Counted from the stretch's first letter, positions 4,570 through 57,913 are shown. The stretch is 64,000 nt of DNA from an uncultured Gammaproteobacteria bacterium (GCA_963753755.1 CAVWDM010000016.1:96381-160380), one strand, 5' to 3'. Notes: a model not told the origin generated them from the letters alone. Translations and numbers: made by a program.

Positions 4570-7698
<3,129 letters not shown>

Positions 7699-8064
7699 GA
7701 TAGTCGCGTGTTCATGGTGTTCACAGGATCAGCGTACCTGAAATCAGAGTGATAATAATAACCACGTATACACAGACCTGTCTGTGCCCGCGTTTGCGAA
7801 TGGTGAATCTCGTTGACCCGTTAACGAAACCCTGGACTGCGGCGAACCTTCGTTCTAGTCTATCGCAGTGCTGCGCAGCCCTGTACATGTTCCCGCGAAT
7901 ACGCGATGAGTGGCAGCAGACTGTGTCGTTGCACGGCACGGCGCATCAACAGCCAGGGCAGGGGTGTTCCTTTTCAGGATGACAGAGCAGGAATCGGGTG
8001 CGCTGAACTAGACCCTCTACGTCGAACATTTGCAGCAATCTTTACAGACACAGGAGACCACGTT

Positions 8065-8568
8065 ATGAAGCACCGAGTCATTGGCGTCATTACCGGGCTG
8101 ATATGGCTGTTTGCAGGCCCGCCCGTGTTTGCCGGCAGCCCGGCCATCGATGATCAGGCTGCACTGGCCGGTCTGAAAACGGGTAAAGGGGTATTCCTGA
8201 TCGACATAGGTGATGCCAGTAAATTGAATTTTTACCTGGAAGTCATTCAGGGGACCTACAAGGGGATGAAAGAGCAGGGCACGGAGCCGGATTTCGTGCT
8301 GGTCTATATCGGGCCCAGTGTAAAATACCTCAGTACGTCGCCATCGGTGGCGGTTGAGCAGGCGGCAGGTGGTGTGCTGATGGAGATCGAGTCAAATGTG
8401 CAGGCACTGGAAGAGCTTGGTGTCAGGCAGGAGGTTTGTGCCGTCGCAACGCGGGTATTTGCTATCGATAATAAGGCCATGTTGCCTGGCCTGACTCTCG
8501 TGGGTGATGGCTTTATCTCCCTGATCGGTTACCAGGCTCAAGGCTATCATCTGGTGCCGGTGTTCTAG
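8065..8568 (+). CDS. Exported hypothetical protein, possibly with a DsrE/DsrF-like fold.
   Basis: AGGAGA RBS before the ATG at 8065. Signal peptide MKHRVIGVITGLIWLFAGPPVFA. Function not recognisable. Confidence 0.5.
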   Translation: MKHRVIGVITGLIWLFAGPPVFAGSPAIDDQAALAGLKTGKGVFLIDIGDASKLNFYLEVIQGTYKGMKEQGTEPDFVLVYIGPSVKYLSTSPSVAVEQAAGGVLMEIESNVQALEELGVRQEVCAVATRVFAIDNKAMLPGLTLVGDGFISLIGYQAQGYHLVPVF

Positions 8569-8903
8569 TATTTGTTCTGGAACATAACCATTTCGCTTAA
8601 CTTACTGCTCGCATTTGCTGTATACATGCGTCATTGTGTTGACGGCCAGCGATCTGGCCGAGAAAGACCGGCGCCTGGCTGATTGAGGCTGAAGTTTTTC
8701 TGCGTTGTCAATGCCCTTGATTCTGTGCCTGCAGGTTTAACTGTGGCAGCGAATGTGTTTAAATCCAGTCCTCCATCGAATCGGGTAAATCCTGCTTATT
8801 TTCAGTAACCGTCGGTCACTATAAGTCCGTACCGGCGCTGTAACCTGTTTTTTTAACGAGTGCTAAACCAAATCCATTTATCAACAAAACCAAGGACATC
8901 ATC

Positions 8904-9749
8904 ATGAAACAGTTATTACGTCGTTACGGGGTGCTTTTTTCCCTTCTCATCCTCACTGTCGGCAGCACGGCCGCAGTGGCAGCAGGTGGCACGCCCGTCA
9001 TGTCGCGCATTCAGACAAGCGGTGAACTGGTACTGGGTACATCTGCGAATATGCAGCCCATGACATTCAAGCAGCCTGATGGCACTATTGCCGGTCTGGA
9101 TATCGACCTCGCCAAGTTAATGGCCGATGCCATGGAAGTGAAACTCGTCACCAAGGTGATGCCATTCAAGGATTTAATCCCGGCGCTGCGCAGTGGCAAG
9201 GTCGATGTCGTACTCTCCAACATGACCATCAATCCCTCCCGTAATATGGACGTCGCCTTTATTGGTCCCTACCTGACATCCGGTAAATGTGTCGTTACCA
9301 AGGAAGAGACGCTGGCCAAGGCGGAAGAAGCAACGGAGCTCAATGCCAAGGATGTCAGCTTCGCTGTCCTCAAGGATTCCACCAGTGAAAAATTTGTTCG
9401 CACCCTGATGCCGAACGTGATCGTAAAACCGGTCAAGAACAGCGAGGAAGGTGCTGAATTGGTCGCCTCTGACAAGGTCAGTGGTATGTTGACTGATCTT
9501 CCCGTGTGTCTCTCGACCATCAAGAATAACCCGGATGCGGGCTTCGTCTCAGTCCTGTCGCTATTGTCCTACGAGCCAATCGGTGTTGCCGTGCCGGGTA
9601 ATGACCCACTGTTCATCAACTGGACCGGGAACTTTCTCGAGCGTATCACCCAGACTGCCTTGCTGGACGTGCTCGCCGTCAAATGGTTTGGAGATCTTGC
9701 TCCCCAGCAGGCTGATCTCGATTCCAGCCAGGCTGACGAGGAAGAGTAA
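8904..9749 (+). CDS. Periplasmic substrate-binding protein, family 3 (amino-acid ABC-type SBP).
   Basis: Signal peptide and SBP_bac_3-like sequence (ELVLGTSANMQPMTFKQPDGTIAGLDIDLAKLMADAMEVKLV...). No permease or ATPase genes are adjacent. Confidence 0.75.
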   Translation: MKQLLRRYGVLFSLLILTVGSTAAVAAGGTPVMSRIQTSGELVLGTSANMQPMTFKQPDGTIAGLDIDLAKLMADAMEVKLVTKVMPFKDLIPALRSGKVDVVLSNMTINPSRNMDVAFIGPYLTSGKCVVTKEETLAKAEEATELNAKDVSFAVLKDSTSEKFVRTLMPNVIVKPVKNSEEGAELVASDKVSGMLTDLPVCLSTIKNNPDAGFVSVLSLLSYEPIGVAVPGNDPLFINWTGNFLERITQTALLDVLAVKWFGDLAPQQADLDSSQADEEE

Positions 9750-9764
9750 ACCCAGTCAATATGT

Positions 9765-9798
9765 GCAAAAAAGGCCGGTGCAATCGCCGGCCTTTTTT
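9765..9798. terminator. Bidirectional rho-independent terminator between two convergent genes.
   Basis: AAAAAAGGCCGGTGCAATCGCCGGCCTTTTTT: a GC-rich 8-bp stem flanked by A- and T-runs. Confidence 0.7.
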
Positions 9799-9981
9799 GT
9801 GTGCGGGTGAATAGTTATTGCATCAAGTAAGAAGCGTTCCGTCTCCTTCCGGGAGAAAGACAGCACGAGGGGACACAGAAATCAGATTGTTAGCAGTATT
9901 TTACCCCCTTTCCCGGAGGGAGAGGGAGTTAATGGCCGGAACGCGATCGTTGACGTTCATGTCGCAGGAGTATTCTGAGGG

Positions 9982-11238
9982 CTAGACGGTGTTTACGGCT
10001 AGTGATTCGATAAAATCCAGCCACTGCTGTGCAGACCGGCTTGTTTTCGGGAATTGCCGTGCCTGTGTAAATGCCTCTCGGGCAGCATCAGTTTCACCCA
10101 GCTCGAAATAGGCCATACCCAGCAACATCCTGGCCTGTGAGCTGGTACGGTCGTTTGCAATGTCGTTAAAGGGCGCGAGTACTTCGGTCACGGCGCGCCA
10201 TTTTCCTACCTCGACATACCACTGGGCCAGTCTCAGGCGCAGTTCGGGCGTGGCCTTATCCTCCAGCGCCCGCTCAAGTGCGTTAATGGCCTGTGTGCGT
10301 TCCCGTGCACTACTCCAGGCGTACGCGAGTAATTCACGGTGTTGCGCCGTGTTGCTGATCACACCGCTGTTCAACTGCCGCTCAATCAAACGGGCTGCCT
10401 TGTAGGGCACACCAGTGGCCAGATAGAGTTGTGCCAGTTGCAGCAGTGACTGTTCGCTGGTCAATACACCGTTCCTGAAGGCGAGTTCCAGTGCGGCAAG
10501 GGCGGCATCGCGGTCGTTCAACGCCATGTAAACGCTCGCCAGTTGCTGCCAGTATTGATCCTGTTGTGGAAACAGGCGGATCATCTTTTTCAGCAGTGGT
10601 ACACAGCCCCTGTAGGACTGCAGTTCATAGTGCATGGCCAGCAGTGCTTCATACCACTCGGCATGTGGCACCTCGGACAGTTTGTTTGCCTTCTGTAACA
10701 GCGGGATGGCCTTACGGTAGCGTTTTTTATATGCCAGTGCCTGCGCAAGCAACACGTGTGCCTGTGCAGAGGGTTCCGATTCCTTGTCGAACCAGACCTC
10801 AAGGATGCTGATGGCCTTGTCCGGCTGCTGCTGATCCAGATAGAGTTGTCCGAGGTTGTAGCGCAGGTTTTGTTCTGTGTTCTCGGGTAATTGCTCAAGC
10901 GCGAGGCTGCCTTCGAAGGCCTTCACTGCTGCAGCGTAGGCGCCACGGTTTATCTGGACATACCCGAGCATTTGTTGTGTAACGGCCTGCTCGTATGCAG
11001 ACAGTCCGGATTCATCGATCAGCTGTTGCAATTCCGTAAGGGCCGCCTTGTCCTCGCCCTGATCCATTTGCTGCTGGATGGTGGTGAGCTTCTTGTAAGT
11101 ATATGGTGACAGTGCCTGGCCAGTTGCCGCGTGTGCCGGCAGTGGCAATGACGTCAACGTCAATGCCAGCAGTAGTGGCGATATATAGCCACTGGCGCGA
11201 CGCAGCAACTTCGGTAGCCGGGTTGCGACAGTGTTCAT
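9982..11238 (-). CDS. TPR-repeat protein with signal peptide, the last gene of the TonB cluster.
   Basis: Signal peptide and multiple TPR-like helical repeats. The position after tonB is typical for this cluster type. Confidence 0.75.
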   Translation of the reverse strand: MNTVATRLPKLLRRASGYISPLLLALTLTSLPLPAHAATGQALSPYTYKKLTTIQQQMDQGEDKAALTELQQLIDESGLSAYEQAVTQQMLGYVQINRGAYAAAVKAFEGSLALEQLPENTEQNLRYNLGQLYLDQQQPDKAISILEVWFDKESEPSAQAHVLLAQALAYKKRYRKAIPLLQKANKLSEVPHAEWYEALLAMHYELQSYRGCVPLLKKMIRLFPQQDQYWQQLASVYMALNDRDAALAALELAFRNGVLTSEQSLLQLAQLYLATGVPYKAARLIERQLNSGVISNTAQHRELLAYAWSSARERTQAINALERALEDKATPELRLRLAQWYVEVGKWRAVTEVLAPFNDIANDRTSSQARMLLGMAYFELGETDAAREAFTQARQFPKTSRSAQQWLDFIESLAVNTV

Positions 11239-51081: not shown

Positions 51082-52140
51082 ATGGAAACAGTGTCGGTCA
51101 ATGCCCTGGTATGGGCAGGAATTCTGTTTTGTGTCAGCCAGTCTGCGATGTTTTCCGGTCTGAATCTGGCATTACTGGGTATCAGCCGTTTGCGTCTTGA
51201 AGTGGAAGCCACGGCGGGTAATCCCGCTGCCGTGAAGATCCTGGCATTACGCAAGGATGTCAATTTTCTTCTCACGACCATTCTCTGGGGCAACGTCGGT
51301 ATCAATGTACTATTGACCCTGCTGTCCAATTCCGTGATGACCGGACTGACCGCCTTCTTCTTCTCAACCATTCTTATTACATTTGCCGGTGAAATAACGC
51401 CACAGGCATATTTCTCCCGCCATGCCATGCGTATGGGATCATTGCTGGCCCCGGTGTTGCGATTTTACCAGTTGCTGCTGTACCCGGTCGCCAAACCCAG
51501 TGCCATGGTACTGGACCGCTGGCTGGGTGAGGAGGGCATCAGTTATTTCAGGGAACGCGACCTGCACACGGTGATCCGCAAGCATATCGAGGCGGATGAT
51601 TCGGATGTGTCGCACCTGGAGGGCATGGGTGCCATGAATTTTCTGGCACTGGACGATATCGAGATAACCCATGAGGGTGAATATGTCGACCCGGACAGTA
51701 TCGTTCAGCTGCCGCTAGACAATGGTTTGCCGGTGTTCCCGGCATTTGAACGCCATGCCCTTGACCCGTTCTTGCTTGATATAAACAGTTCCGGAAAGAA
51801 GTGGGTGATCATTGTAGACGAACACAACGAACCCGCCCTGGTGTTGAACGCCAATAACTTTCTTCGCGATGTCTTGTTTGGCAAGGAGGCCTTTAACCCT
51901 TACAGCTATTGTCACCGACCTATCATCGTCAGGGATTCCAGTACCCTGCTCGGAAAAGTGTTAACGCGCTTGAGTATACATGGTACCAGCGAGGTGGATG
52001 ATGTCATCGACCATGACCTGATTCTGTTGTGGTCCGATGAAAAGCGGGTGATTACAGGCGCTGACATACTTGGTCGCCTGATGCGGGGTACTGCTGTGCA
52101 AGACATCAGACGCTCGAAGTCGGATCTGGCAAAGCGCTAA
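51082..52140 (+). CDS. DUF21 (CNNM-type) membrane protein with a degenerate CBS region and no CorC_HlyC domain.
   Basis: N-terminal DUF21 TM domain. The C-terminal region is soluble. Confidence 0.75.
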   Translation: METVSVNALVWAGILFCVSQSAMFSGLNLALLGISRLRLEVEATAGNPAAVKILALRKDVNFLLTTILWGNVGINVLLTLLSNSVMTGLTAFFFSTILITFAGEITPQAYFSRHAMRMGSLLAPVLRFYQLLLYPVAKPSAMVLDRWLGEEGISYFRERDLHTVIRKHIEADDSDVSHLEGMGAMNFLALDDIEITHEGEYVDPDSIVQLPLDNGLPVFPAFERHALDPFLLDINSSGKKWVIIVDEHNEPALVLNANNFLRDVLFGKEAFNPYSYCHRPIIVRDSSTLLGKVLTRLSIHGTSEVDDVIDHDLILLWSDEKRVITGADILGRLMRGTAVQDIRRSKSDLAKR

Positions 52141-53924
52141 CCGGGCTGCTGGGTGGGTGCAGTCGCAATCTGTGTGGCGCCGTTTGCCGTTGCTTCGGGC
52201 TGTTGACCGGGTCCTGTTGCACTGTTGCCTGAATGGACCGTGATCTGGGTGAAAGGAATGATCCAGCCTTCCCGGTTACAGACGTCCACGCAGGCTTGTT
52301 GAACCATGCGCTGTGCCCTGAAATAGGCCTTCGCTGCACGGCCATTAAGGATCATGTAGATCTGGTAGTCCAGTGAACTGGCGCCGGCCTCCTTGAATTC
52401 CACCAGCATGTCCTCGATATCTTCTTTCATGCCGGCTTGTTCAAAGCGTGCGGTGATTGCCTCCCGGAAGCGCGCGGGTACCATGTCCAGGCAGATTGCC
52501 TGATGCTGGTAGTCAATGCCGAACGCGCCGGCAACACCAAAGCCCTCGCGCGACAGGTTGCGCACGTGCTGACCGAGGAAGTCTTTGCTAGGGATCTGCA
52601 CCTTGCTGTCCCGAACCATGACCTCGACCAGTTCGATTGTCTGGCGCGATACCTGGCCAAAACTACCGTCGGCCAGCAGGACGAAATCCCCGGGCTGGCA
52701 GGGAAACCACGGTTCCTGGCTGGCAGGTCTTGAAACGAGCGCATTCATGTCATGCAGGGGTAAGCGCACAACCCCCTCGAGGGCAGGGTTCTTCAATATT
52801 GTGTAGACGCTGAGCGATTCCACGATGAACGGCACACCGTCAAGCACGAGGCGTTCTTTCTCACGTACGGGGCCGACTCCAAGCAACAGCCGTAATTCGG
52901 CAGCGTAACGCGGCAGGGTTTGCCGTAAAGTGAGCGCGGCGCCGGCCAACGCAAGCAGGGCGAGGGTGAGAAACAGCACATCACCACGTATATAAAATAC
53001 CATCAGTATAGCGAGCACGATGATGATCGCCGTGGCGAGGCGGTAACTGTAGTAGACCAGCGGTGCCCGCTTGATACCGACATCGCGTTCTGCTCGAAAC
53101 AGCCAGCGCCAGTAGACCGTGAGCAGCCACTTTGATAGCAGCCAGATGGCGACACTGACCAGTATGGCCAGCAGCAGGGTCAGACCGCGTCCACCAAGAA
53201 ACTCCTTGAGTGTTTCCCCGACCGAGGTGTACCACGCAATACTCTCCGTTTTAATGACGGCGAGCTTGAAATGTGTTATCTCCAGAGCGCGCTTTACGTC
53301 ATCCCCGCGTTGTTCCCAGTCAAGCAGCAACTGCTCGAGTGGTTCTGCTGCCAACGGTGGTAATGACTGTTGCTTGAAGTGGTGGATTGAATCAATCGCT
53401 TTCTGGATCACCTTCAGCTGGTCTTCCAGTCGCGCGGCTTCCCTGCGCAGACTGTCTACCTGGCGTGGCTTTGCGGTCAACTCCTTGAGTGTGGAGAGCA
53501 GCGGCCTGCTAACCTGCTCGAGCTCGACACGCCAGTCGATCTGCTGTTCCGGCTGGTCAGTCAGCACCGAAAGATTAGGGCTACCCAGTGCGATATTTTC
53601 GAAAGCCAGTTGCAGGCTTGTTATATCCTTGTTGGTACGTTCAATCTTCTGTTCCAGTGTCTGCTTCTCGGATACATCCTCCAGCTGTTTGAGTTGTTCC
53701 CTGAGCTCGCGAACCGTGGTTCGTTTTGATTCGAGGGATTGCTGGATATTCACCAGATTCTCTACGGCGGTATATGACCTGGCGGTTGTTGCATTGAGCT
53801 CTGCAAAGTCCATCTTGTCCTGTGCAACGACCTGGCCATGCGCGCATACCAGAAGCAGGACCAGGCAGGCCAGGTGGCAGAACAGGAAGGCTGTCGGGCG
53901 GTCTGTTTGGTGAGTTGAAAACAT
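52137..53924 (-). CDS. MscS-family mechanosensitive channel with a periplasmic coiled-coil N-domain.
   Basis: Signal peptide and coiled coil, TM helices, and an MscS beta-domain-like PGDFVLLADGSFGQVSRQTIELVEVMVRDSKVQIPS. Confidence 0.75.
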   Translation of the reverse strand: MFSTHQTDRPTAFLFCHLACLVLLLVCAHGQVVAQDKMDFAELNATTARSYTAVENLVNIQQSLESKRTTVRELREQLKQLEDVSEKQTLEQKIERTNKDITSLQLAFENIALGSPNLSVLTDQPEQQIDWRVELEQVSRPLLSTLKELTAKPRQVDSLRREAARLEDQLKVIQKAIDSIHHFKQQSLPPLAAEPLEQLLLDWEQRGDDVKRALEITHFKLAVIKTESIAWYTSVGETLKEFLGGRGLTLLLAILVSVAIWLLSKWLLTVYWRWLFRAERDVGIKRAPLVYYSYRLATAIIIVLAILMVFYIRGDVLFLTLALLALAGAALTLRQTLPRYAAELRLLLGVGPVREKERLVLDGVPFIVESLSVYTILKNPALEGVVRLPLHDMNALVSRPASQEPWFPCQPGDFVLLADGSFGQVSRQTIELVEVMVRDSKVQIPSKDFLGQHVRNLSREGFGVAGAFGIDYQHQAICLDMVPARFREAITARFEQAGMKEDIEDMLVEFKEAGASSLDYQIYMILNGRAAKAYFRAQRMVQQACVDVCNREGWIIPFTQITVHSGNSATGPGQQPEATANGATQIATAPTQQPG

Positions 53925-53989: not shown

Positions 53990-55297
53990 TCACAGCAACG
54001 CGGAGAACAGGGTTGCCAGCCCAAGGAAACTGAAGAAACCGACAACGTCGGTCACTGTCGTGAGTATGATAGAGGCCGACTGCGCAGGGTCCTGGCCCAG
54101 ACGTGTCAACAGCAGCGGTATAGCGGCTCCGGAGAGACCTGCCAGTGCCATCGAAATGACCATCGCCACGCCGATGACCACGGCGAGACCGATTGACTGG
54201 CTCCATATCAGGACGCCCAGCCCCGTGACAATAGCGATGGCAATGCCATTGAGTGCGCCGGCAAGTACTTCTTTAAACAGCACGCGTTGCCAGTGGCGTA
54301 GCTGGATCTCCCGTAGCGCCAGGCCACGCATGATAACGGCGAGTGCCTGCGCGCCGGTGTTACCGGACTGGCCGGCGACGACCGGTAACAGCACTGCCAG
54401 TGCCGTGAATTGCGCAATGGTGTTCTCGAACAGGCCAACGACTGCGGCCGCGAGAAAGGCTGTCAGCAGGTTGACGTTGAGCCACGGCAGGCGCTTGCGC
54501 ATCGCGGACAGGGGCGATGACAGCGCGCGTTCATCGCGACTGACACCAACCATGGCCTGAATATTTGTTGCCGCTTCTTCCTGCGTGGCCTTGATGACGG
54601 CGGACTGGCGGATGACGCCGAGCAGACGGTTGTCGATATCGACCACCGGAAGCAGGCGCAGTCGGTAGCGTGTAAAAAGATCGATGATTTCTTCCCGGGG
54701 CGTCGTCGCAGTGACGCGAACCGGTGTGGTGATATGCAGCAGTGACTCCAGGCGGGCCTCGGGATCTGCCTGGACGACATCGACCAGATCCACCAGGCCA
54801 ACCAGCTTGCCGCTGTCATCTGTAACCACGAGCACCGCTGTCTCACGGGATGGAAACCGCCGCAAGCGATTCAGCACCTGTTTGACGGTCAAACGCGCGG
54901 GGATGCTGGGCGCGCGCGGCTGCATCAGGCGACCTGCGCTGGCCTCCGGATAGGTCATCAGGTCGCGCAGTTCTCTTGCCAGTCCTGCATCCAGATTGTT
55001 CAGTTGCTTTTCCCGTGCATCCGGAGCCAGACTGCCGAGCAGCAATGCGGCAAGGAGCGGATCCATGGCGGCCATAATATTCCGTGCGAGTGCCGGTTCC
55101 AGTTGTTGTAATACGGTCGTCGCCAGGGCAGTAGACAGGCGACCGAGGATGCGTGCGCCCCTTTCCACAGTCTGTGTCTGTAACAGCTCAACGAGTTCGG
55201 CGACAGGCGCCGTTTCCAGCGCCTCGGTCGTTTCCTGTGGAAACCCGTCAATAAAGGCATCAGCCAGCGCATGCGTGAGGGCGCGCAGGTCAGCCAT
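53990..55297 (-). CDS. mgtE: MgtE magnesium transporter, second copy.
   Basis: MgtE_N, a CBS pair, and the TM domain (ILTTVTDVVGFFSFLGLATL). Confidence 0.9.
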   Translation of the reverse strand: MADLRALTHALADAFIDGFPQETTEALETAPVAELVELLQTQTVERGARILGRLSTALATTVLQQLEPALARNIMAAMDPLLAALLLGSLAPDAREKQLNNLDAGLARELRDLMTYPEASAGRLMQPRAPSIPARLTVKQVLNRLRRFPSRETAVLVVTDDSGKLVGLVDLVDVVQADPEARLESLLHITTPVRVTATTPREEIIDLFTRYRLRLLPVVDIDNRLLGVIRQSAVIKATQEEAATNIQAMVGVSRDERALSSPLSAMRKRLPWLNVNLLTAFLAAAVVGLFENTIAQFTALAVLLPVVAGQSGNTGAQALAVIMRGLALREIQLRHWQRVLFKEVLAGALNGIAIAIVTGLGVLIWSQSIGLAVVIGVAMVISMALAGLSGAAIPLLLTRLGQDPAQSASIILTTVTDVVGFFSFLGLATLFSALL

Positions 55298-56135
55298 GCG
55301 GATCCCTGTGTGTCAGCGATGTGCCGGTCGCTATCAAGGTGGCCAGTAACTGTCCCGCCGTGACAGCAAACAATTCGCCGACGGTTATAAAGGATTCCAG
55401 GCCGTTGCTGACGGCGCCTGTATGTAAGGATGCTTCCTGGAAGCGCCGCATACTTTTCTGACGGATGATACCCAGCAGAACGTTATTTTCGTCGGTGACA
55501 GGTAATGCATGGTATTCCTGCCAGTACGGGCTGTTGAATACGGTCAGTATCGACTGTACCGGGGACAGACTGATGATGTGTCTGTGCATGATCTCGCTGA
55601 TCCGCGCGGCTGACGGCGCACTGATCATTTCATGCAGCGTCATCACACCGGTTAACTGGCCCGCGGCATTGGCGGCATAGACATAAAATTTCATACCACG
55701 CCGTATCCGCTTGATACGTTTAACTGCCTGTCGAACGGACAGTTCCTCCGGTACGCTTGCCAGCGGCGCTTCCATGAGGTTTCCGGCAGTACCGCGGGGA
55801 TAGGGAAGCAGTCGCCTTATCGAGGCAGCCTGGTCCGGTCGCAACGCTCTCAATAACGACTCGCGTGTATCCTCATCGAGTTGACGTAACAGCATTATCT
55901 GAAGATCTGGAAGCAACAGGCTGAATATCTGGCCTGCCGCCTGTGATTCAATCACACTCAAACAGCTTGCGGCAAACCCCGGCGAGAAATGCTCGATGAC
56001 TGACTTTGCCGTGAGTGGATTAGCAACCCCAAGATATTGCGCGGCTATTTCTGCGGGAAAGTCTTCGAGTACGCGTGCTGCAGCGGCGGGCTGGCTTCTC
56101 AGAAAGGTTGCACCGAGACGGGAATGCGGGTTCAT
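55290..56135 (-). CDS. Stand-alone MgtE N-domain plus CBS-pair protein, with no TM domain.
   Basis: Start trimmed to MNPHSRLGATFL. MgtE_N-like helices and CBS motifs. ATGA overlap with the upstream gene, and an 8-bp overlap with the downstream mgtE. Confidence 0.7.
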   Translation of the reverse strand: MNPHSRLGATFLRSQPAAAARVLEDFPAEIAAQYLGVANPLTAKSVIEHFSPGFAASCLSVIESQAAGQIFSLLLPDLQIMLLRQLDEDTRESLLRALRPDQAASIRRLLPYPRGTAGNLMEAPLASVPEELSVRQAVKRIKRIRRGMKFYVYAANAAGQLTGVMTLHEMISAPSAARISEIMHRHIISLSPVQSILTVFNSPYWQEYHALPVTDENNVLLGIIRQKSMRRFQEASLHTGAVSNGLESFITVGELFAVTAGQLLATLIATGTSLTHRDPHG

Positions 56136-56989
56136 GGAGTTTCGGTTCTGGCGAGATGCACAGATTCCCGTTCGCTGAAGCGCTTTGCAGGGATCAGTGT
56201 CTGGCCGTCCTGTGTCTCCAGGATCACGTTTGTGCGGGTAATACGCAGTATTTTCCCTTCGATACACCCAATCCGTATACGTTCACCCGGGCTGTACTCA
56301 TGTACAATCGATTGCACGGCCAGCAGGTTTTCGATCGTGGTCTTTGCGCCGAGGGAGAAGGCCAGTGCGATTGCCCCGAACATTACCCCGAAGAGTATGG
56401 CCACCAGGGCGACCAGCAGGGTGTTGTCGATACCGATCTGTCCGGCAGCGACAGAAAAGACAATCAGCAGCACCAGTATCTGGCCGAGACGTCCCAGCAC
56501 GTCACCCTGCGCGATATTCATACGGGTGCTGCTGCGCCGGATGACAGCCCGCGTGACCTCGGCAAGCCACAAACCGACAAACAGTATCAGCAGTCCGGCC
56601 AGCAGGCGTGGGAGGTAGGCAGTGATGCTGCCGAGCAGACTCGAAATGACCTTCAGTTCGAGCACCTCGGAAGCCGCAATCACAAAGAACAGCAGCACCA
56701 CCCAGAACACGATACGGCTGGCAATCTTCGGCGCGGCATTGTAGGAACTTGGTTGCTGCACACGGGTGTCCATTGGCCGGGTGTGTGCAAGTTGAACAAC
56801 CGTCTTTTCGGTAAGTTTTTCTGTGCCGTAGCGTAAGAGCCGTGCCACACCCCAGCCGACCAGCAGCAGTACCACGGCCCCCAGAACCGCCGGCAGATAT
56901 TCGAGGACCTGTATCGCGACCCGGCTGACGGATTCGGTCAGGGTGGCGGTCCACTCCTGGATTTCAACAATAGGATTCTGCTGTTCCAT
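56132..56989 (-). CDS. Small MscS-like mechanosensitive channel.
   Basis: Three TM segments and a beta-domain-like GERIRIGCIEGKILRITRTNVILETQDGQTLIPAKRF. Confidence 0.7.
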   Translation of the reverse strand: MEQQNPIVEIQEWTATLTESVSRVAIQVLEYLPAVLGAVVLLLVGWGVARLLRYGTEKLTEKTVVQLAHTRPMDTRVQQPSSYNAAPKIASRIVFWVVLLFFVIAASEVLELKVISSLLGSITAYLPRLLAGLLILFVGLWLAEVTRAVIRRSSTRMNIAQGDVLGRLGQILVLLIVFSVAAGQIGIDNTLLVALVAILFGVMFGAIALAFSLGAKTTIENLLAVQSIVHEYSPGERIRIGCIEGKILRITRTNVILETQDGQTLIPAKRFSERESVHLARTETP

Positions 56990-57256
56990 GATGTCGCCAT
57001 CATAGGGCCTGGCTGTTGTTGTCGCAATATATGCCTGTATCCGCGGTTGTTACCGCAGTAGTCGTATTGGCCCGTCCGGGGCTTTGCAGTTCACACAGGC
57101 GACAGATCATCGGTTAATATAGCGCCTGTGAGACCAGCGCATGGGTAGTACCGATCCCCTACTGTTGTTCAATGCCGTTGCCGCCGGGCGATAACCCCCG
57201 GCGAGGTGCGCTGTATCACAGCTACCTGAGAACATTAACTTAACAGAGAATTGATA

Positions 57257-57913
57257 ATGACAAACGAGACAAATGTTACCTGGCACGAGCACAGTGTCAC
57301 TCGAGAGGCCCGCGAAAAGAAAAATGCTCACAAGGGTTGTGTGATCTGGTTTACCGGCCTGAGCGGTTCCGGAAAAAGCACGGTCGCGAATACGCTGGAC
57401 CACAAGCTTCACCAGGTGGATATCCACAGTGTCGTGCTGGATGGCGATAATGTCCGTCATGGACTCAATGCCGGTCCGGGAATGCTGAAAGATACACATG
57501 GCGATGAATTTTCGAACCGTTTCGGGCTGGGGTTTTCCGCCATAGACCGGGAAGAAAATATTCGCCGCATAGGGGCGGTGGCCGAGATATTTGCACAGAC
57601 GGGTATTATTGCACTGACCGCCTTTATCAGCCCCTACCGCACCGATCGAGACAAGGTTCGCAAGACGTTAAAAGACGGTGAGTTTATCGAGGTCTTTGTA
57701 GACACGCCCATCGAGGTCTGTGAACAACGGGATCCAAAAGGACTTTACAAAAAGGCGCGCGCCGGGGAAATCAAGGGGTTTACCGGCATCGATGATCCCT
57801 ATGAGGCACCGCAGCACCCTGAACTGGTGCTGTTTGCGGCGGAAAAAACACCTGATATTCTCGCTGATGAAATCATCGCCTATCTTAAGGATAGAAACAT
57901 TATCGGCGGGTGA
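57257..57913 (+). CDS. cysC: Adenylyl-sulfate kinase (APS kinase).
   Basis: P-loop GLSGSGKST and the characteristic APS kinase sequence. Confidence 0.9.
   Translation: MTNETNVTWHEHSVTREAREKKNAHKGCVIWFTGLSGSGKSTVANTLDHKLHQVDIHSVVLDGDNVRHGLNAGPGMLKDTHGDEFSNRFGLGFSAIDREENIRRIGAVAEIFAQTGIIALTAFISPYRTDRDKVRKTLKDGEFIEVFVDTPIEVCEQRDPKGLYKKARAGEIKGFTGIDDPYEAPQHPELVLFAAEKTPDILADEIIAYLKDRNIIGG

Follow-up and report, generated by a model that had tools for sequence, protein, structure and literature searches.

A stand-alone MgtE-type sensor gene in a conserved three-gene module with an MscS-like gene and a divergent mgtE

We analyzed a 64,000-nucleotide stretch of DNA from an uncultured Gammaproteobacteria bacterium (GCA_963753755.1 CAVWDM010000016.1:96381-160380; hereafter the window, with positions counted from its first letter), in which three overlapping open reading frames (ORFs) on the minus strand encode an MscS-like protein of 285 amino acids (aa) (gene A, 56132..56989), a 281-aa protein consisting of an MgtE N domain and a CBS pair (gene B, 55290..56135, with its ATG at 56135) and a full MgtE of 435 aa (gene C, 53990..55297). 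Gene B is a real, conserved stand-alone gene. Judged from aligned sequences, B keeps residues of the ATP and Mg2+ sites of canonical MgtE that C has replaced, the binding itself being predicted. We propose, with about even confidence, that B acts as a trans-acting sensor subunit of the divergent MgtE, with A as a co-functioning partner. Within this proposal we infer, each separately, a physical complex, the ligand of B, the direction of regulation and a conductance of A.

Conservation of gene B and of the A-B-C module

Pfam detected both parts of the MgtE sensor in B and did not detect the PF01769 pore domain. MgtE_N matched with 53.7 bits (aa 15-114, including D77; 55794..56093, minus strand, assigned from Pfam and the model helices), and CBS matched with 45.6 bits (two copies forming the pair at aa 119-232; 55440..55781, minus strand). 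TIGR00400 scored 85.5 bits on B, over profile positions 25-242 only. The N domain followed by a tandem CBS pair is the fold of the cytoplasmic domain of canonical MgtE, and the B profile matched the MgtE cytoplasmic domains 2oux (1e-26) and 2yvy (3.5e-21) in the PDB. The AlphaFold2 (AF2) model of B, with a predicted local distance difference test (pLDDT) score of 70, contained ten N-domain helices and the CBS pair, and the top ten matches of a Foldseek search of this model against the PDB were all MgtE structures. The initial annotation had described B as only the N domain and CBS pair of MgtE, with no pore; the domains and the missing pore held up, but B also has a conserved hydrophobic helix at its C-terminus (aa 244-272, GLESFITVGELFAVTAGQLLATLIATG; 55320..55406, minus strand, assigned by conservation).

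A database search returned 147 relatives of B; nearly all among those listed were exactly 281 aa long, with identity down to 54%. The ratio of nonsynonymous to synonymous substitution rates (dN/dS; Nei-Gojobori method, against four orthologues) was 0.15-0.19 for B, compared with 0.13-0.20 for A and 0.09-0.13 for C, and purifying selection was found on the N domain, the CBS pair and the tail of B alike. An exhaustive HMMER search with the B profile, covering 1.84 billion cluster representatives (50% identity clusters), yielded a family of 545 representatives at E<=1e-30. Almost all of the best 150 of these 545 matches were stand-alone proteins of 263-305 aa that aligned from their own N-terminus, the exceptions being a few short partial sequences and one 380-aa protein, P0258. 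P0258 was considered as a natural A-B fusion that could serve as interaction evidence and was rejected, as its N-terminal extension was unlike A. The distant B proteins, with Calditrichaeota, Gemmatimonadales, Nitrospirota and Thermodesulfobacteriota as named sources, were 25-30% identical to B of the window. In a neighbor-joining tree, 42 of 50 bootstraps placed B apart from both Thermus MgtE and the MgtEs of the three-gene cassette (C), and mean identities were 0.39 among B proteins, 0.43 among C proteins and 0.26 between B and C. The tree and identities fit a single ancient duplication with co-diversification thereafter. B matches the first 240 residues of C in domain order at only 27% identity; the duplication is therefore old. 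Fixed length, dN/dS and monophyly all bore out the description of B as a conserved stand-alone gene.

The conservation extended to the neighbours of B. A scan of one genome per GTDB species gave 22 related loci, all from uncultured Gammaproteobacteria, including Thiogranum and Ectothiorhodospiraceae bins, and A, B and C were found in the same order wherever the contig reached. Six distant contigs, among them loci of Calditrichaeota, Gemmatimonadales and Nitrospirota, were inspected, and all six carried an upstream protein (264-282 aa), B and then MgtE (432-444 aa), with unrelated flanks. PF05552 is on record for the upstream protein in five of these six loci and absent from the record for L028 (264 aa). 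A metagenome scan keyed on two B motifs only (taken from 15 closer sequences) produced 80 more loci; because these loci were picked by B alone, their neighbours represent an unbiased sample. The loci were scored with hidden Markov models (HMMs) of A, of B and of the C-terminal 180 residues of C. Among 81 distinct loci, those with at least 1.4 kb of downstream room for MgtE, and those with at least 1 kb of room for A, were considered assessable. MgtE was located directly downstream of B in 48/48 assessable loci, always co-directionally, and A adjoined B in 48/49 (37 co-directional and 11 divergent), the sole exception being L032, with glgE upstream of B. The conserved core is A-B-C, and a stand-alone MgtE_N-CBS gene beside mgtE, which the initial annotation had proposed to look for by synteny, recurs across phyla.

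The overlaps between the three minus-strand genes were confirmed in the sequence. The stop codon of A and the start codon of B share ATGA at 56132..56135 (context ctccATGAacc, in which the ATG of B overlaps the TGA of A), and the stop of B and the start of C overlap by 8 bp (ATGGCTGA, 55290..55297; context cgcATGGCTGAcc), the ATG of C beginning 8 bp before the TGA of B ends. Overlaps of 4 or 8 bp are frequent in operons and are weak proof alone; the above-chance feature is their conservation across loci. The A-B overlap was RTGA in 21 of the 22 related loci with the junction covered, and the 8-bp B-C overlap was kept almost without exception in related gammaproteobacterial loci (about 22 species). 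In the distant loci, for which start codons were estimated, the A-to-B spacing was -11 to +2 nt in 46/52 and, among co-directional loci, -4 or +1 nt in 39/52, and B overlapped C in 27/50. As A and B usually overlap or abut, all three genes are probably made together. A longer, 325-aa version of B starting from a GTG at 56267 (55290..56267), which would reach 136 bp into A, was rejected as a longest-ORF artefact: all B orthologues have 281 aa and start at the ATG or GTG that overlaps A, which places the start at the ATG at 56135.

Sensor residues of B and the divergent MgtE

Gene C matched MgtE_N, CBS and MgtE PF01769 in Pfam. Its cytosolic N domain and CBS pair occupy aa 20-240 (54578..55240, minus strand), and its transmembrane (TM) domain occupies aa 304-427 (54017..54388, minus strand; PF01769, 113.6 bits). 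TIGR00400 narrowly passed its curated cut-off on C (240.4 against 232.75 bits). With canonical Thermus thermophilus MgtE (2yvx, 2zy9, 5x9h), C shares the N domain, the CBS pair, the 5-TM pore, and the pore and plug aspartates; the pore residue (Thermus D432) was kept in 20/20 sequences of the window's clade, and the plug residue (Thermus D259) in 41/49 distant sequences. The TM domain of C was almost invariant, and its N domain was poorly conserved. On a TM HMM made from the last 180 residues of C, the cassette MgtEs scored about 300 bits compared with 103 bits for Thermus MgtE, indicating from sequence that they are a distinct subfamily. C lacks the canonical cytosolic ATP/Mg2+ ligands (Y170, R187, F227, D91 and D226 of Thermus MgtE). 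This ligand replacement is a mark of the subfamily, and the membership of C in MgtE still holds.

The numbering of the Thermus MgtE sequence in our alignments is consistent with each of the 19 residue identities given in PMC5882242 and PMC5529423, and the sequence agrees with the 2yvy profile alignment. In Thermus MgtE, Y170 and R187 contact the ATP phosphates, F227 stacks on the adenine, D91 is a ligand of Mg4, and D226 is a ligand of Mg5 (PMC5529423, PMC5882242). The corresponding positions were tallied in 68 distant and 21 clade sequences of B and in 49 distant and 20 clade sequences of C. At the Y170 position, B had Tyr in 51/68 distant and 21/21 clade sequences, and C never had Tyr. The R187 position was Arg in 48/68 distant B sequences and His in the window's clade, and mostly Gln, Ala or Val in C. 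Aromatic residues occupied the F227 position in 35/68 distant and 21/21 clade sequences of B, compared with Leu, Val or Ile in C. The two Mg2+ ligand positions followed the same pattern: D91 was acidic in B (56/68 distant and 21/21 clade) and Ser, Asn, Ala or Val in C, and D226 was acidic in B (42/68 distant and 20/21 clade) and Arg or Lys in C (36/49 distant and 20/20 clade). In the window, the residues at D91, Y170, R187, D188, D226 and F227 are D77, Y151, H168, E169, E207 and Y208 in B, and L81, V155, V172, D173, R212 and L213 in C, and the same replacement classes as in the window's C were found in the 49 distant cassette MgtEs across phyla. The claim that the MgtE of this operon has a complete sensor of its own was thus correct for the domains and the fold, but not for the ligand residues, several of which are replaced in C.

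The C-terminal helix of B distinguishes it further from the cytosolic part of MgtE. In the window's clade, V252, F256, A260 and L263 are invariant, and these positions fall on one face of the helix. The wider B family ends with the motif LGELYWxGL, which is kept in distant members, and its tail helix is followed by about 20 polar residues. The 19-residue hydropathy maximum of the tail was 1.63 in the protein of the window, with a median of 1.65 in its clade and of 1.32 in the wider family, in which 21% of members reached at least 1.6. The pLDDT of the tail was low in the AF2 model. Because the hydropathy is borderline in the clade and below threshold in the wider family, and because the tails end in polar residues, a membrane anchor is the less likely interpretation; these sequence properties make a peripheral docking helix more likely.

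The MscS-type protein A and the proposed partner of B

Gene A matched Pfam PF05552 (MS_channel_1st_1, the MscS-associated TM helix) with 63 bits. PF00924 was not detected in A of the window and was weak in some orthologues, and the NCBIfam model 'msc' scored 46.5 bits on A against a cut-off of 100. Relatives of A had a fixed length of 285 aa, with 73-100% identity among the 120 matches listed. Hydropathy gave TM segments at residues 34-52, 89-107, 122-140 and 191-209, and a fifth is likely (about five in total). Residues 171-283 (56141..56479, minus strand, assigned by profile alignment) correspond to an MscS-type pore-lining helix of the TM3 type and then a beta (Sm-like) domain; the A profile aligned to residues 202-318 of Arabidopsis MSL1 with E = 1.3e-5 and, more weakly, to bacterial MscS chains with E = 7e-4 to 5e-3, including chains of 171 residues. 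The AF2 model of A was poor (pLDDT 60; predicted template modelling score, pTM, 0.29), with a helix at 189-231 followed by four strands at 238-270. A therefore shares the pore-lining helix, the beta domain and the PF05552 helix with the MscS family (E. coli and T. tengcongensis MscS, Arabidopsis MSL1); unlike these, it ends at residue 285, a few residues past the beta domain, without the alpha-beta domain or the C-terminal barrel. 'MscS-like' fits the core of A, which by sequence is a minimal MscS form with putative mechanosensitivity. The link between Mg2+ uptake and osmotic state that had been drawn from this gene pair was not supported, as A is MscS-like only in the pore helix and beta domain and lacks the rest of the cage.

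Two side observations concern A. Residues 66-83 (56741..56794, minus strand) are its best-conserved stretch in the window's clade; this stretch is a loop and not a TM helix, has the motif LAHTRPMDTRVQQPxSY with R71, P72, D74, T75, Q79, P80 and Y83 invariant in the clade, and would face the cytoplasm according to a homology-based topology. The distant A proteins of L026-L030 did not show this motif, and the loop could be a clade-specific interaction site. In addition, PDB entries 9sdb, 9seh, 9sdg and related ones contain a 171-residue 'small-conductance mechanosensitive channel' with seven chains per entry that aligns to A 119-269. From these solved chains it follows that MscS forms much shorter than E. 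coli MscS exist; as structural templates for A, they may be the most suitable.

The co-evolution of the three proteins was analyzed by the mirror-tree approach, using pairwise distance matrices of 25 distinct complete trios. The distance correlation was highest for B and C (r(B,C) = 0.81, compared with 0.66 for r(A,C) and 0.60 for r(A,B)), and the partial correlation was 0.69 for r(B,C|A) and 0.15 for r(A,B|C); B correlated best with the cytosolic part of C (0.80). These correlations, together with the constant co-directionality of B and C, indirectly favour a B-C pairing, and the tight A-B junction keeps an A-B partnership alive.

Since B keeps the ATP/Mg2+ residues that the tethered sensor of C has replaced, subfunctionalisation is the most likely mechanism, in which the sensor function would have been divided between B and C after the old duplication. 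B would have lost the pore, retained ligand binding and gained the conserved C-terminal hydrophobic docking helix, and C would have kept pore and plug, along with a sensor that is structural but poor in ligand residues. B would then sense cytosolic Mg2+ and/or an adenine nucleotide, dock on C through CBS-type contacts with its cytosolic domain and/or through the C-terminal helix, and, when docked, set the gating of C in trans. A would be the constant third partner, acting as a membrane scaffold or as another conductance subject to the same control. The initial annotation had suggested regulation in trans by a soluble decoy or modulator. Regulation in trans is strengthened by the B-C distance correlation and by the residues kept in B and lost in C, but it is unproven; the decoy part fared less well, because the 48/48 co-occurrence of B and MgtE makes a decoy less likely than an obligate partner.

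Several points weigh against this proposal. The residue mapping is based on alignments of about 25% identity, with the greatest uncertainty in the N domain (D91, E59 and D95). The cytoplasmic Mg2+ sites differ among MgtE orthologues (PMC10200709), so that the loss of the Thermus ligands in C is no proof of lost sensing. B of the window's clade has His instead of Arg at the R187 position, and the F227 position is Val in 29/68 of the wider-family B proteins; therefore, ATP binding by B is not assured. The mirror-tree correlations, from 25 trios, are confounded by shared phylogeny and by the common fold of B and the cytosolic part of C. In co-directional loci, A and B are spaced no more widely than B and C, which would suit an A-B partnership equally well.

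This last point leads to an alternative that we consider unlikely but worth weighing, namely that B is a regulatory subunit of A and not of C. B would supply a Mg2+/nucleotide-sensing cytoplasmic module to the cage-less A through its C-terminal helix, and MgtE would merely be co-expressed, giving paired influx and release pathways. The architecture of A, which stops after the beta domain without the MscS alpha-beta domain and C-terminal barrel, suits this reading, as do the adjacency of A and B in 48/49 loci, their spacing of -4 or +1 nt in 39/52 co-directional loci, which is tighter than the estimated B-C spacing, and the family-specific C-terminal helix of B, which is present in no MgtE. However, A is divergent in 11/49 loci, whereas C adjoins B in the same direction in 48/48; r(A,B|C) is just 0.15 compared with 0.69 for r(B,C|A); and the complementary residue pattern lies between B and C. 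A symmetry mismatch would also be expected from the known families, between a heptameric MscS ring and a dimeric CBS module.

An equally improbable explanation is that no complex is formed and that the three proteins are independent and only co-regulated for ion homeostasis. B would then be a soluble Mg2+/nucleotide-binding CBS protein that has a buffering or decoy role or regulates another target. Operon overlaps are common and do not imply interaction, and stand-alone CBS-pair proteins are widespread (PDB matches included MJ0100, AcuB and others). Against this, the near-absolute adjacency across phyla within unrelated flanks exceeds usual co-regulation, B tracks the evolution of C, and the one-sided conserved pattern of the C-terminal helix of B resembles a docking surface.

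The initial annotation had set in advance, as its refutation, that B would prove to be the decaying remnant of an mgtE duplicate whose TM region was lost. This is extremely improbable: B shares the domain order of the N-terminal 240 aa of MgtE, and MAFFT put its tail on MgtE TM2, but this match was spurious, as the tail had no significant likeness to any MgtE TM segment (hhalign probability 0.3%) and was rejected as a TM2 relic, and the fixed length of the B family with its 147 database relatives, the dN/dS of 0.15-0.19 in all three parts, the hundreds of 50%-identity clusters across phyla and the monophyly of B all contradict decay.

Neighbouring genes, known systems and the meaning of the module

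Upstream of A lies an intergenic region of 261 bp (56990..57250, minus strand), which is the likely promoter region of the operon. Two sigma-70-like matches in it (57053..57026 and 57027..56999) were no more than in shuffled sequence, and promoter and terminator scans gave nothing above the shuffled expectation. No Rfam family reached its gathering score anywhere in the window, hence no M-box (ykoK) or other riboswitch, and control of the operon by such an element was rejected. Beyond this region, an ORF divergent from the operon (57251..57913, plus strand) resembles, by eye only, an adenylylsulfate (APS) kinase with the P-loop GLSGSGKST.

Gene D (52137..53924, minus strand) is an ORF that begins 65 bp after C, and the gap contains no terminator-like site. 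Its 595-aa product is a membrane/coiled-coil protein whose N-terminal segment is hydrophobic and which contains a long coiled-coil-like stretch and three to four TM segments; it had no Pfam or PDB match. Residues 408-461 resemble the MscS beta domain by eye; gene D as a second MscS-like channel was rejected (hhalign E = 0.046, probability 1.2%). D was found behind C in only nine distinct related gammaproteobacterial loci and is a clade-specific accessory outside the conserved core. Convergent with D, and with a 4-bp overlap at its stop, is a gene for a 352-aa protein with a CNNM (DUF21) domain (51082..52140, plus strand), a second Mg2+-related membrane protein in the neighbourhood. Its membrane domain comprises residues 14-173, and no CBS pair or CorC_HlyC was detected in the other 180 residues. 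Four related loci (L004, L009, L016 and L019) carry a CNNM gene beside the cassette or close to it. CNNM/CorB Mg2+ transporters are likewise CBS-pair-regulated Mg2+ transport proteins; unlike in the cassette, their membrane domain is unrelated and the CBS pair is fused, not separate, and the CNNM gene, present near the cassette in the window and a few relatives, is outside the conserved core.

The closest locus, L004, had 88-95% protein identity over the cassette proteins, D and the CNNM gene, which places the window in this gammaproteobacterial group; flanks other than D and the CNNM gene differed among the related loci. In L016 (CAWKAE010000017.1), labelled 'uncultured Halobacteria archaeon', a cassette 61-77% identical to the gammaproteobacterial one was found together with the D and CNNM genes, and this contig was probably mis-binned or the metagenome-assembled genome mislabelled. 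In three distant loci, the cassette was flanked by alpha-glucan/glycogen enzymes: Glyco_hydro_77 in L029 (1082..3298), CBM_48/isoamylase, Glyco_hydro_57 and alpha-amylase in L030 (1..4154 and 7185..10118), and GlgE in L032 (1701..3716). This may be a coincidence or a lineage-specific neighbourhood.

Canonical MgtE is a homodimer that senses Mg2+ and ATP by its own tethered domains (PMC5882242, PMC5529423, PMC9276622). In the module described here, by contrast, a second, pore-less sensor is encoded separately, the residues at Y170, R187, F227, D91 and D226 of the tethered sensor are replaced, an MscS-like gene is adjacent (48/49 loci), and the window contains no M-box. A 2022 review of Mg2+ transporters describes MgtE as a homodimer only, with no accessory subunits. 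No account of an MgtE sensor encoded on its own, of accessory subunits of MgtE or of neighbouring MscS and MgtE genes was found in the literature within reach, which left out most subscription-journal papers, in agreement with the initial impression that the arrangement was not known as characterised. Neither NCBIfam (release of June 2026) nor Pfam contained a dedicated B family or a full-length A family.

The closest systems in logic, though not in fold, are K+ channels and transporters with RCK/KTN subunits. In MthK, whose soluble RCK domain is made from an internal start, and in KtrAB and TrkAH, a soluble sensor copy is co-made, assembles with the membrane protein and gates the pore. The module described here, in which assembly is proposed, differs from MthK, Ktr and Trk in fold (RCK compared with MgtE_N and CBS), ion and stoichiometry. 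In addition, the soluble copy of MthK is identical in sequence to the tethered one, whereas B is a 27%-identical paralogue with a C-terminal helix of its own.

MgtE is among the main prokaryotic Mg2+ channels and is the model for the human SLC41 family, and its gating is attributed to a single homodimeric protein. A further-reaching reading, which we put forward only tentatively, is that an MgtE subfamily spread over several phyla works as a multi-subunit machine, in which sensing would have moved to B with its docking helix, A would belong to the same complex, and Mg2+ entry would be coupled to a second conductance or to membrane tension. With three genes in about 3 kb, the module is small and suits complementation of Mg2+-auxotrophic E. 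coli and Co2+/Ni2+-sensitivity assays (PMC5529423). If B is a trans-acting sensor subunit, a function would be provided for the B family, annotated only as 'CBS domain-containing protein' or 'magnesium transporter', and for the A family, annotated only as 'mechanosensitive ion channel domain-containing protein' or 'hypothetical protein'. The module would then be a natural experiment in splitting sensing and conduction between polypeptides, and a widespread subfamily would add auxiliary subunits to the picture of MgtE.

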